DNA of 33,248 nucleotides from Acidimicrobiia bacterium (GTDB lineage: Bacteria > Actinomycetota > Acidimicrobiia > Spongiisociales > ZC4RG35): assembly GCA_029865445.1 (NCBI GenBank), contig JAOUGY010000003.1, positions 1-33,248 of the forward strand, given 5' to 3'. The first letter of the stretch is position 1, and the number at the start of each line of letters is the position of its first letter. Under the pieces are notes generated by a model. The model saw nothing but the letters and a program-made list of their open reading frames with translations. It was not told where the DNA came from and did not search any database. Shown here in pieces: positions 29,085-32,201 of the stretch. The position numbers were made by a program, and so were the translations under genes.

Positions 29085-32000
29085 CTACGTGCCGGCCTCG
29101 ACGATGAGCTCTCCGGTTCCGATGCGGAAACCATCGGTGGCGGATGCCCTCACCACATAGGTACCGGCGGTGTCGAACGTTGCCGAGGTCTCCGGTCCCA
29201 CCCGGTCGAATTCGACCACCCCCGGACCGGAGACCATGGACCATGTCACGGGCGCCCCCCACATCACCCCATCCGTGCGAACCATCGCCTCGAGGTCGGC
29301 TGCGACACCCGCGACGACCGGGGGAGCGCTGACGAGCGACACCGTGACATCCGGGGCGGCGGACCCCACCGTCAACGCCACGAGGTCGGACGTCGAGTCC
29401 ATCCCGTCGTCGGCGTTCAGTTGTAACACGTAGACCCCCGGGACGTCGAAGCTGACCTCGGTCGTGAGCGCTTCGGGGTCCCCGATGATCGCCGTCGACC
29501 CTTGGGGCCCGGCGACCAGGGTCCACTCGGTCGAGAGAGCGAACCGGCGCGGCAGCCCGTCGTCATCGACACTGCCGGTGAGCGTCGCCACGGTCGGGTC
29601 TCCCACGAACGGGATGGGCCCGTACGTACCGGCGTCGACCTCCGGTGCTTCGTTGGCGACCACCGAAATCACGATGTCGTCGTGTCCTGTGAGCGGTTCG
29701 GCGTCGCTGACGCTGAGGCGGAACGTGTAGTCGCCGAGCTCGGTGAAGCCCGAGGCCGTCGTCGCCGGTTGGTCCGAAGACGTGAGCGTTGGGGCGGCCC
29801 CTTCGGGCTTCGAGACGATCGTCCACTCGTAGTCGAGTCCGCCGCCTTCGGGGAGGCCGTCATCGACGACGTTTCCGGTGAGCAGCACGGTGTCGTCGAT
29901 CGCCAGCGTGGCGACAGGAGCCGTGATCCCGACGATGGGGCGGATGTTCTCCGAGCCGTCGCCTGCAATGTCGCCGACTTTCGACACCCGGTACCGGAGC
30001 ACCCAGCGACACGTCTCCTCCACGAAGGAGAACGGACCGGTGTCGAGGACACGCATCTCCCCCTCACGGTATCCGGGGAGCGTACGATCCACGGGAACCC
30101 GGGAGTCGGTGAACTCGCCCGCCGCATACTTGGCGAGGACGATGACCTCCCGCAGCTCGGATGTCCCGATGTCCGCCGTGAACCGCGCCGTGTCGTACTT
30201 CCCGTCCTTGATGTGCGTGACGAACGCGACCAGCTGCGCCGTGTCGTTGGCGATGAGGTCGACGGTGCGAGAGATCGCCAGTTCGACGGTGTTGCCTGAG
30301 TTGAATCCGGTGTCGTCGATCTCGTAGGCCGTCTCGTCGTTGACGGTGATGTCGATGTCGTAGGTGCCTGAACCGTGGGCGTTGCAGTCCTGCTGGATGT
30401 CGAAGGAGTCCACGAGGATCTCGATCCGCTCTCCGATCTTCTGATCGGAGGGGGCGGGCACGGCCGTGCATTCGGTCACTTCGTATTCGGTGGTCTCGGA
30501 CATCCGGGCGATGCTGTTGTCGCCCAGGTTGCGCAGTGTGTAGCTGAGCGGGCGATAGTCGGACAGGTCTGCCGACTGATCGAAGTACGCACCGATGTCG
30601 CCCTGGCGGATAAGGTCTCTGGCGTTTTGCGAGCTTCCGCCGATCGTCACGACCTGCATGCGGGAGTCGGCCAGGATCTCCTGGTATCCGGCGGCCAGCG
30701 AGCCGCTCACCTTGAACACCCCGCCGTTGTAGGCCGCGGCGAGTGCACCCATGATGCGGTCGACGGACTGCGTCGACGTCATCGACACCATGAGGATCCG
30801 ACCGTAGGTCACATCGGCAACATATACAGGGAGGTTGTCGGGACCGAGCCGGCCCAGCGCCACCTGCTCGCGGAGCCGCTCCGGCGTGAAGTCGTCGCTG
30901 AACACCGCCGACGGAGTTTCGGGCAGGACAATCGAAACCGTGAAGGCTTTCTCGAGGAAGTAGGCGGTGACCGTGTTCTCGTTGGCTGCTCTCGACATCT
31001 CCAGGGCGGCCCTCACCCGGGCGGACATGTACTTGGCGGAAAGACCCATGCGCAGCGCCGCCTGAGTGGCCGAGTACGAACGCTCCTGCTCGAAGAAGAC
31101 GCTGCCACTGGGGTCGAGGCCCCGATTCTCGGCGGCGGCGACCAACTCGCCGATCGCCTGCTGCACCGTCGCCACCGTGGGGTTCTCTACGGTCCTCGTG
31201 GTGTCCTCGGTGAGCAGGTTGATGCTCAGCGCCACCGGATCACGTTGACGGATGGGCAACTCCATGAGCGACCCGCGGGCCGACTTGTGTGAAGACCCCT
31301 GGATCAGCGCTCCCGGCCACAGGATGTTGACGTCCGGCTCGAAGACGACCAGTTCCCTCGGCGTGTCGGTCATCGTGTAGGGCGTGGTCTCGCAGTCGTA
31401 TGTGACTCCTTCGAGGATCTCGTCGAACTCGGTAGTCGCCTTCCCGGGGATGGGCGCCGGTTCAGCGGGTTCCTTGGTTTGGGCGTACTCGTCCCACGAT
31501 CCCCAACCTGTGATCTCCTTGTCGACCTCGTAGGCAGTGACCGGATCGAGGTGGAGCGCCCGTGTGAGGAACGAGGCCATCTGGCCTCTCGTCACAGACG
31601 CCTCCGGGCAGAATTGGTCGTTCATCGGAGGGTTGCACCCCTTCGTCACGCCTTCTGCCCCGAGTCGGTCGATGTCGGCTTCGAACACAGAGCCGTCATC
31701 GTCGGTGAACAGATTCCCACCCCCGTCGGTGGTGTACCCGAATGCTCGAACGAGGAACGCTGCCATCTGACCCCGGGTCACCGGGTCGTCGGGGCAGAAC
31801 CGGTCGTTGACGGGCGGGTTGCACCCTCTCGCGACGCCGGCGAGTGCGACGGCATTGATGTCCGACTCGAACACCGAGCCGCCGTCATCGATGAAGTGGT
31901 CGGAGGCTCCGGTCTTCAGTTCCAACGCCCGTCGCAGGAATGCGGCCATCTGGCCGCGGGTCACCGACTGGTCGGGGCAGAACTCGTCGTTGAACGGCGG

Positions 32001-32201
32001 GTTGCACCCTTTGGTTATCCCGGCGGCGAACAGGCGCTCGATGTCGGATTCATGGACATTCCCTTCGTCGTCGGTGAACTGACCGAGCGGTGCAAGCGAC
32101 GTGGCCTCACCGGGATCGGGGGCCGATGAGGCAACGGGCGTCGGGCCGAAGAAGAGCGCCACAACGACGAGCGCGACCATTGATCGAGGATGGTGCGACA
32201 T
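29085..32201 (-). CDS. Secreted SLH-anchored cholesterol-dependent cytolysin-like (thiol-activated cytolysin family) protein with C-terminal PKD/Ig-like repeats
   Basis: SD GGGGAGGT and an N-terminal signal peptide. Three SLH-like repeats (aa ~41-218). A CDC core (aa ~268-578): ILWPGALIQG, RDPVALSINL, VENPTVATVQQAI, AFTVSIVLPETPSAVF, DNLPVYVADVTYGRIL, VTIGGS and PLSYTLRNL. Then a beta-rich domain, then three PKD-like repeats (DDGLP...EWT...GxYxxxLxxxD). Confidence 0.87.
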   Translation of the reverse strand: MSHHPRSMVALVVVALFFGPTPVASSAPDPGEATSLAPLGQFTDDEGNVHESDIERLFAAGITKGCNPPFNDEFCPDQSVTRGQMAAFLRRALELKTGASDHFIDDGGSVFESDINAVALAGVARGCNPPVNDRFCPDDPVTRGQMAAFLVRAFGYTTDGGGNLFTDDDGSVFEADIDRLGAEGVTKGCNPPMNDQFCPEASVTRGQMASFLTRALHLDPVTAYEVDKEITGWGSWDEYAQTKEPAEPAPIPGKATTEFDEILEGVTYDCETTPYTMTDTPRELVVFEPDVNILWPGALIQGSSHKSARGSLMELPIRQRDPVALSINLLTEDTTRTVENPTVATVQQAIGELVAAAENRGLDPSGSVFFEQERSYSATQAALRMGLSAKYMSARVRAALEMSRAANENTVTAYFLEKAFTVSIVLPETPSAVFSDDFTPERLREQVALGRLGPDNLPVYVADVTYGRILMVSMTSTQSVDRIMGALAAAYNGGVFKVSGSLAAGYQEILADSRMQVVTIGGSSQNARDLIRQGDIGAYFDQSADLSDYRPLSYTLRNLGDNSIARMSETTEYEVTECTAVPAPSDQKIGERIEILVDSFDIQQDCNAHGSGTYDIDITVNDETAYEIDDTGFNSGNTVELAISRTVDLIANDTAQLVAFVTHIKDGKYDTARFTADIGTSELREVIVLAKYAAGEFTDSRVPVDRTLPGYREGEMRVLDTGPFSFVEETCRWVLRYRVSKVGDIAGDGSENIRPIVGITAPVATLAIDDTVLLTGNVVDDGLPEGGGLDYEWTIVSKPEGAAPTLTSSDQPATTASGFTELGDYTFRLSVSDAEPLTGHDDIVISVVANEAPEVDAGTYGPIPFVGDPTVATLTGSVDDDGLPRRFALSTEWTLVAGPQGSTAIIGDPEALTTEVSFDVPGVYVLQLNADDGMDSTSDLVALTVGSAAPDVTVSLVSAPPVVAGVAADLEAMVRTDGVMWGAPVTWSMVSGPGVVEFDRVGPETSATFDTAGTYVVRASATDGFRIGTGELIVEAGT
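31548..32081 (-). repeat. Three ~61-aa SLH-like repeats within the CDCL gene
   Basis: FxDDxGxVxExDIxxxxxxGxxxGCNPPxNDxFCPxxxVTRGQMAxFLxRA occurs three times. Confidence 0.9.

Follow-up and report, generated by a model that had tools for sequence, protein, structure and literature searches.

The 33,248-nt stretch of DNA from an uncultured Acidimicrobiia bacterium that was analyzed here (the window) encodes on its minus strand, between positions 29085 and 32201, an uninterrupted open reading frame (ORF) of 1038 amino acids (aa) plus stop, in which an N-terminal S-layer homology (SLH) anchor is joined to the pore-forming core of a cholesterol-dependent cytolysin (CDC). We read the product as a secreted, single-component CDC-like pore-forming toxin that is parked on the cell wall via three N-terminal SLH repeats, and give this interpretation a probability of roughly 0.6. 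This SLH-anchored CDC-like protein (CDCL) belongs to a known toxin family, of which it represents a rare and undescribed form. From the N- to the C-terminus, the following features can be deduced.

29085..32201, minus strand: whole gene, encoding signal peptide, three SLH repeats, CDC-like core of domains 1 to 3 (D1–D3), C2-like domain and three PKD repeats.
32124..32201, minus strand: putative Sec signal peptide, aa 1–26 (MSHHPRSMVALVVVALFFGPTPVASS), recognized by sequence inspection, without lipobox Cys.
31554..32090, minus strand: three SLH-type repeats, aa 38–216, recognized by Pfam SLH, a match to the SLH domain of Sap and repeated motifs; presumed non-covalent wall anchor.
30459..31529, minus strand: CDC-like pore-forming core D1–D3, aa 225–581.
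31446..31484, minus strand: Pro/Glu (P/E)-rich, clade-specific insertion, aa 240–252 (AQTKEPAEPAPIP), gapped in 109–113 of 116 aligned relatives; a possible exposed site of cleavage.
31392..31394, minus strand: Cys270, with its putative partner Cys578 at nt 30468–30470.
30981..31079, minus strand: helical bundle region of transmembrane hairpin 1 (TMH1), aa 375–407, recognized by modelled helices and an alternating polar/apolar pattern.
30798..30806, minus strand: YGR motif, aa 466–468.
30660..30773, minus strand: TMH2 helical bundle region, aa 477–514, recognized by modelled helices.
30636..30641, minus strand: GG hinge, aa 521–522, invariant in 116 of 116 relatives.
29964..30437, minus strand: C2-like beta-sandwich at the D4 position, aa 589–746.
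29097..29909, minus strand: three PKD/Ig-like repeats, aa ~765–1035, covered by PF22352 (two stretches) and PF00801 (one).

The identity of the core is evident from profile, structure and motif comparisons. The Pfam family PF01289 (Thiol_cytolysin) matches aa 277–578, corresponding to profile positions 49–350 of 353, with 102.9 bits (E 2.1e-29; cut-off 25), and a phmmer search against the PDB sequences lists anthrolysin O first (2.5e-21), then intermedilysin (1e-19 to 2e-18) and perfringolysin O (about 5e-15), with the Elizabethkingia CDCLs placed lower (short form 6.8e-10, long form 0.011). An AlphaFold2 model of aa 225–770, calculated from a 116-sequence alignment, reaches a mean pLDDT of 84.5, retrieves CDC structures in Foldseek at E values of 1e-21 to 3e-25 and displays the D1–D3 fold with both helical bundles that become transmembrane hairpins in classical CDCs. 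Besides YGR, the core contains the motifs WPGAL (aa 295), VTIGGS (aa 518, the GG being residues 521–522) and PLSY (aa 551). None of the undecapeptide fragments ECTG, WEWW and AWEW occurs in the whole 1038-aa protein. Hence, the CDC-like core lacking the cholesterol-recognition undecapeptide, as proposed in a first-pass annotation made from the letters of the window, is confirmed at the level of both sequence and fold, with YGR lying exactly at the coordinates given there. The protein also bears the CDCL signature of Evans et al. 2020 (PMC7527733), i.e., F/Y-F/Y-Xn-YGR with a downstream GG and no undecapeptide, the F/Y-F/Y position ahead of YGR being A419–F420. Across the 116 relatives, G467, G521 and G522 are invariant, R468 is kept in 115 and an aromatic residue at the Y466 position likewise in 115, and all have F or Y at the position of F420.

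At the N-terminal side of the core, the first-pass annotation had assumed a P/E-rich linker at about aa 220–265 and had suggested it as the activation site. Of this linker only the insertion aa 240–252 is left. The remainder is mostly conserved and folded core, as aa 225–285 are modelled with pLDDT values of 85–96 and correspond in the alignment to the beginning of pneumolysin, W236 is present in 114 of the 116 relatives, and the actual spacer between the third SLH repeat and the core is limited to approximately aa 215–228. Activation in the linker as originally drawn is thus not sustained. Cys270 and Cys578, correctly described before as bracketing the core, turn out to be conserved family-wide (114 and 113 of 116 relatives, respectively) and probably form a disulfide at the base of D2.

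In the anchor, which is composed of three repeats, every repeat shows a Cys pair of the form GCNPP..FCP as well as a VTRGQMA motif, with GCNPP found at aa 65, 126 and 188 and TRGQMA at aa 81, 142 and 204. Accordingly, the Cys residues of the protein are located at positions 66/75, 127/136 and 189/198, followed by 270, 578, 606 and 731, and aa 1–65 are free of Cys. Pfam SLH (PF00395) matches one stretch above its cut-off of 20.8, and the SLH domain of the S-layer protein Sap (3pyw) is matched over aa 61–214 (E 2.6e-4, phmmer against the PDB), so that the SLH tether proposed earlier stands. When searching with the SLH module alone (aa 36–225), 5884 of 8000 scored proteins were related at E ≤ 1e-3, and among the 120 matches listed, nine of the ten relatives named to an organism belong to Acidimicrobiia or Actinomycetota. 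The cargoes of these modules are very diverse, comprising VanY peptidases, amidases, subtilases, cutinase, LytR, beta-propellers as well as cadherin and PKD arrays. With 37 SLH matches in the genome carrying the window (G000) in addition, the module appears to be a general wall anchor of the lineage. The Cys-pair variant (GCNPP.ND.FCP) as such is seen in thousands of proteins of Acidimicrobiia/Actinomycetota (genome-wide in G000; P0118–P0234), and no literature on it was found in open-access PMC and bioRxiv. Together with FabH encoded in the window, for which seven of eight organism-named relatives are from Acidimicrobiia, the SLH relatives identify the host by sequence as a member of the Acidimicrobiia and, as presumed before, an actinobacterium.

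Relatives of the core are numerous. With a core-plus-tail query, 2174 representative clusters were retrieved from 1.84 billion proteins at a limit of E ≤ 1e-3, of which 1520 remained at 1e-10 and 399 at 1e-30. Relatives with a named host belong to Gemmatimonadota, Zixibacteria, Bacteroidota, Krumholzibacteriia, Longimicrobiales and Deinococcota. In Deinococcota, a CDCL homologue with lipobox and 46% identity is encoded on plasmid pDYP1 of Deinococcus yunweiensis (L005, 5407–7470), and in the copies from metagenome-assembled genomes (L011, L014, and L031) the CDC core is located far from the N-terminus, in L011 and L014 behind a signal peptide and a repeat-like stretch (...WIIGADNTAYSRSNNTWKK...). 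The combination with SLH, by comparison, is rare. Among 116 proteins matched in a word-indexed search, Pfam SLH is detected in five (the window protein, P0003, P0004, P0005, and P0006), and the number of SLH+CDC clusters totals seven after adding P0137 and P0449. In open-access PMC and bioRxiv, nothing was found on this architecture, and the main text of PMC7527733 does not contain the terms 'Actinobacteria', 'SLH' or 'S-layer', the species list of that study being placed in supplementary Fig. S4, which could include a CDCL that is actinobacterial or bears SLH.

Surveying the anchors of 117 proteins, six show SLH and 103 a lipobox-like Cys by regular expression. The other eight comprise six with a Cys after a hydrophobic stretch (by eye), P0008 with neither and the N-terminally truncated P0111, so that a lipoprotein-type Cys is present in about 109 of 111 non-SLH relatives. 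Whether lipid or SLH, the anchor ends about 10–25 aa before a conserved LPxW/WGSW motif. A quick maximum-likelihood tree, calculated from the core sequences without P0449, unites the six SLH proteins and P0008 in one clade (SH-aLRT 98) that lies within lipobox-bearing rows, and a single change suffices for explaining the SLH label. Long branches are seen for P0137 and for the outgroup rows, and the root is insecure. A single nested SLH clade among lipobox relatives indicates that the lipid anchor was swapped for an SLH anchor when the gene entered monoderms, and the SLH-bearing clade, rare among the relatives, has a single origin as judged from the tree.

Behind Cys578, the position of D4 is filled by a beta-sandwich (aa 589–746) that differs from classical D4, as the Pfam match stops at aa 578 and only a single Trp is present in aa 582–765. 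The domain had been regarded as novel in the first-pass annotation; this view has to be given up, since it is homologous to the tails of some relatives and represents a family domain with C2-like fold. By jackhmmer, it is tied to the tails of P0012, P0054, P0005, P0007, P0011, and P0006, and an hhalign comparison with the profile of these six tails results in 86% probability for the first 41 columns only, homology of the remaining domain being based on the MAFFT alignment and jackhmmer. The relatives' tails share an acidic loop D-x-D-x-G-x-x-D-D-x-I-G-x-W, and through this loop (...kDkDtgseDdeigkW...) the six-tail profile finds its best PDB match in 1wfj_A (E 0.013), which we take to be a plant C2 domain. 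A tentative assignment of the window domain to the C2 fold is based on Foldseek and on a VIA re-alignment of Foldseek's own list; the VIA lists hold neither classical CDC D4 nor D4 of the Elizabethkingia protein EaCDCL, from which no claim is drawn. Pfam C2 matches neither the tails of nine relatives nor the window domain, and a search of the ESM Atlas with the latter gave no usable match. Cys606 and Cys731 align with Cys residues of several relatives and may form a disulfide. Downstream, the three PKD-like repeats noticed earlier are corroborated by PF22352 (K319L-like PKD), matching two stretches with 58.9 bits (E 4.9e-16; cut-off 27), and by PF00801 (PKD), matching aa 959–1024 with 28.5 bits (E 1.6e-6; cut-off 23.5).

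Several observations weigh against a wall-parked pore-forming toxin. The Pfam SLH score is modest (28.8 bits, E 1.2e-6), and binding of the Cys-bearing variant to the wall is putative. A gene of the PF04230 pyruvyl-transferase family was not found in G000, an assembly 89% complete; its presence in three of four congeners and in one family member speaks weakly in favour of CsaB-dependent binding to a pyruvylated secondary cell-wall polymer, as PF04230 is not specific for CsaB. The first F/Y position ahead of YGR is an Ala, which is permitted by the published motif, as PMC7527733 gives 62% aromatic residues for this position and otherwise S, Q, A or N. A conserved basic, trypsin-type cleavage site was looked for in the variable N-terminal loop and rejected, as 47 of the 116 relatives have no K or R at all there. 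The modelled TMH2 helices (model residues 256–271 and 280–288) are weakly amphipathic, with a beta-moment of 1.30 below the 90th percentile of core 11-mers (1.43). Finally, in the clade of the window protein the C2-like domain is interrupted by insertions and its acidic loop is degenerate or largely replaced, making Ca2+-dependent lipid binding by this protein doubtful.

Some of these points would also fit a surface protein without lytic function, for instance an adhesin or a scaffold associated with the S-layer, that has co-opted the CDC fold and lost pore formation. Weak amphipathicity of TMH2 and the degenerate acidic loop are compatible with this, as are a permanent N-terminal tether combined with adhesin-like PKD repeats and the many non-toxin cargoes of the lineage's SLH module. 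We nevertheless consider loss of function unlikely, as YGR, GG and F420, residues serving only the switch from prepore to pore, are invariant or nearly so in the relatives, the TMH1 helices (model residues 154–160 and 170–176) are strongly amphipathic with a beta-moment of 2.14, exceeding the 99th percentile (1.87), and the cores of the SLH-clade members are 78–89% identical to each other. A homodimer prediction with two copies of aa 225–581 scored 0.00 against a mark of 0.42, which, in a run without controls, speaks neither for nor against self-assembly. With motifs and fold established, we infer pore activity of the window protein from its homology with the CDCs.

Only one PF01289 match was obtained in G000, with no second CDCL found in its 539 contigs, and likewise only one in the more complete congener G002 (97%); among 61 genomes of relatives, two, including G000, have a match at all. 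All 30 related loci, viewed with flanks of up to 6 kb, contain one CDCL gene each (the copy in L020 is split by a stop). The neighbours in the window encode HSP20, two tRNAs, an ABC-2 transporter, GNAT and an ADP-ribosylglycohydrolase family protein (24223–25857, minus strand), the latter with 544 aa being unusually long for its family (E 3e-56). An obvious partner, lipoprotein or immunity gene is not adjacent in the window, although no search with the BcdI sequence was made. The earlier statement that neither a partner CDCL nor an immunity gene is adjacent thus holds true. In contrast, regarding the single-gene version as unusual does not agree with the 30 loci, nor with the 821 of 1578 Bacteroidota genomes having a single CDCL gene according to PMC11169675 (Nat Commun 2024). 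What stands out in the proposed architecture is the rare SLH+CDC combination and not the occurrence as a single gene.

Alternatively, the protein could be one half of a complement-like two-component system as in Bacteroidota, with a short partner and a dedicated immunity protein encoded elsewhere. Characterized CDCLs of Elizabethkingia and Bacteroides indeed work as pairs, as reported in PMC11169675, and a partner gene could be missing from the incomplete, fragmented assembly. Considering the single PF01289 match also in G002, the solitary genes at all related loci, the unrelated neighbours and a core closer to the self-sufficient classical CDCs than to EaCDCL, such a system is quite improbable, and we keep to the single-component toxin.

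The locus itself is syntenic across five congeners in the order HSP20, CDCL, tRNA-Asp, tRNA-Phe. The genes for tRNA-Phe(GAA) and tRNA-Asp(GTC) at 28718–28908 on the minus strand lie directly downstream of the CDCL gene and are about 90% identical in all five. The pair marks a variable site. In G000 the CDCL gene is intact. G002 keeps the order SLH protein, HSP20, CDCL, tRNA-Asp, tRNA-Phe with two extra genes before the tRNAs, and the PKD2/PKD3 region of its orthologue (locus L003, contig C2, 11829–12641) runs through frames 3, 2 and 3, leaving P0003, the product called there (935 aa), with an out-of-frame end; these two frame changes may be real decay or assembly indels. In G003, only a remnant is left (locus L040, contig C9, 9652–11452), consisting of a 124-aa ORF that fuses SLH2 to ILADSRMQVVTIGGSS at the end of D3, followed by a frameshift and a 469-aa ORF (P0421) retaining the C2-like domain and the three PKD repeats. 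The deletion corresponds to window positions 30678–31750 (aa ~150–508), and a partial HSP20 duplicate (L040, 9393–9545) is found beside the remnant. The gene is absent from G004, with about 790 bp between HSP20 and tRNA-Asp, and from G001, which has an ABC-transporter pair at this site. This mix of intact, broken and absent states among five congeners shows the CDCL gene to be accessory and in the course of loss from the genus. A scan for promoters and terminators around the gene gave no gene-relevant signal above shuffled expectation.

From these broken and missing copies it could be argued that the gene is a decaying relic, out of use also in G000 despite its open frame. This is very unlikely, as the 1038-aa frame is undamaged with all motifs present, an intact 1016-aa relative with 78–81% identity (P0004) exists elsewhere, and the breaks in G002 may be technical.

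At the window end, another ORF (32941–33246, plus strand) running off the sequence encodes the start of a secreted protein with a Cys-bearing SLH repeat (FTDDDGSVHEGYIEALVAEGITTGCG...). Its counterpart in G003 (L040, 7028–8158; 376 aa) has three SLH repeats and a Thr/Ser-rich spacer, and by eye its C-terminus resembles a small copper-binding domain. With this neighbour, the CDCL gene is part of a small cluster of genes for SLH-anchored surface proteins.

Based on these findings, the following sequence of events would apply to the wall-parked toxin. After Sec export and cleavage of the signal peptide, the SLH module would hold a wall polymer non-covalently and store the toxin at the surface, serving as the monoderm counterpart of the N-terminal lipid anchor of its relatives. 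The toxin might then be freed either by dissociation of the SLH module or through a cut within or close to the exposed P/E insertion, which directly follows the anchor and is situated in the N-terminal strand region that is shed when CDCLs of Bacteroidota are activated. Judging from fold and position, binding to the target surface would be the task of the C2-like domain together with the three PKD repeats. Monomers would oligomerize, and the YGR/GG sensor would control the unfurling of the bundles aa 375–407 and 477–514 to beta-hairpins, resulting in a large beta-barrel pore. Since tens of monomers have to diffuse on the target membrane for a pore of the CDC type, a wall-tethered monomer would have to be released for acting. 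In Bacteroidota, CDCL lipoproteins turn up in spent medium (PMC7527733) and CDCLs are activated by loss of an N-terminal segment (PMC11169675). With these precedents and the need for release, 'release equals activation' seems to be the most economical reading, albeit not backed by a conserved cleavage site. As target, bacteria and eukaryotic microbes have roughly equal odds.

In a more far-reaching version, the window protein would belong to a CDCL branch with a genuine C2-type Ca2+/lipid-binding targeting domain, resembling the perforin design, whose lipid anchor was exchanged for SLH in monoderm Actinomycetota and which would act as a release-activated surface pro-toxin against membrane-exposed prey or grazers (protists, algae, wall-less cells) rather than kin bacteria. 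We regard this version as possible but doubtful.

Farther from the CDCL gene, a 526-aa protein (5688–7268, plus strand) contains a Peptidase_S74 'chaperone of endosialidase' domain (E 2.5e-14) and a 749-aa protein (7265–9514, plus strand) cadherin-like/Big_9 domains and two PG_binding_1 repeats. Both may form a surface or phage-tail-fibre-like module. A 1441-aa ORF (1495–5820, plus strand) without Pfam match at E ≤ 1e-5 overlaps long opposite-strand ORFs in GC-rich DNA and may be no gene.

Within the MACPF/CDC superfamily, the CDC-like proteins make up the largest branch, and to our knowledge only the lipoprotein-anchored two-component CDCLs of Bacteroidota have been studied so far. The present comparison indicates that an N-terminal surface tether is kept throughout the family, with the chemistry of the anchor tracking the envelope, i.e., lipid in diderms and SLH in the actinobacterial clade. 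The C2-like sandwich occupying the variable D4 position in part of the family leads to a testable hypothesis on membrane recognition, with a structural parallel in perforin. Gain and loss within one genus are as expected of a weapon in antagonism or defence. The locus also suggests that large-pore toxins are made by the Acidimicrobiia, a group of environmental actinobacteria that is abundant but has been little studied. For experimental study of the family, the D. yunweiensis plasmid homologue looks practical.

Among known systems, Sap from Bacillus anthracis (PDB 3pyw/6bt4) likewise has three tandem SLH repeats beside the signal peptide, whereas the window repeats carry an inserted Cys pair each, the variant typical of Acidimicrobiia/Actinomycetota. 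Perforin (PDB 3nsj, 4y1s) combines an MACPF core with EGF and C2 parts, the latter showing no detectable sequence relationship to the window domain, in which also the acidic Ca2+-type loop of the relatives is degenerate. Moreover, the window core is of the CDC and not of the MACPF type (Foldseek E 1.4e-8 for 3nsj versus 1e-23 for CDCs). Compared to the classical CDCs pneumolysin, perfringolysin O, intermedilysin and anthrolysin O, the window protein lacks D4, undecapeptide and Trp-rich loop, so that cholesterol recognition is not expected, and it possesses in addition the N-terminal SLH anchor, the C2-like domain and the three PKD repeats, and an environmental host. With the CDCLs, as described in PMC7527733, PMC11169675 and PMC11952106 (PDB 6xd4, 8g32, 8g33, 9ccp), it shares the YGR and GG signature without undecapeptide, a divergent domain at the D4 position, N-terminal surface anchoring and membership in a large environmental family. 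It differs from the two-component Bacteroidota systems in having neither an adjacent short CDCL gene nor a signal for signal peptidase II (SpII), its signal peptide being followed by SLH. By sequence and fold, finally, it is nearer to the classical CDCs than the characterized CDCLs are.

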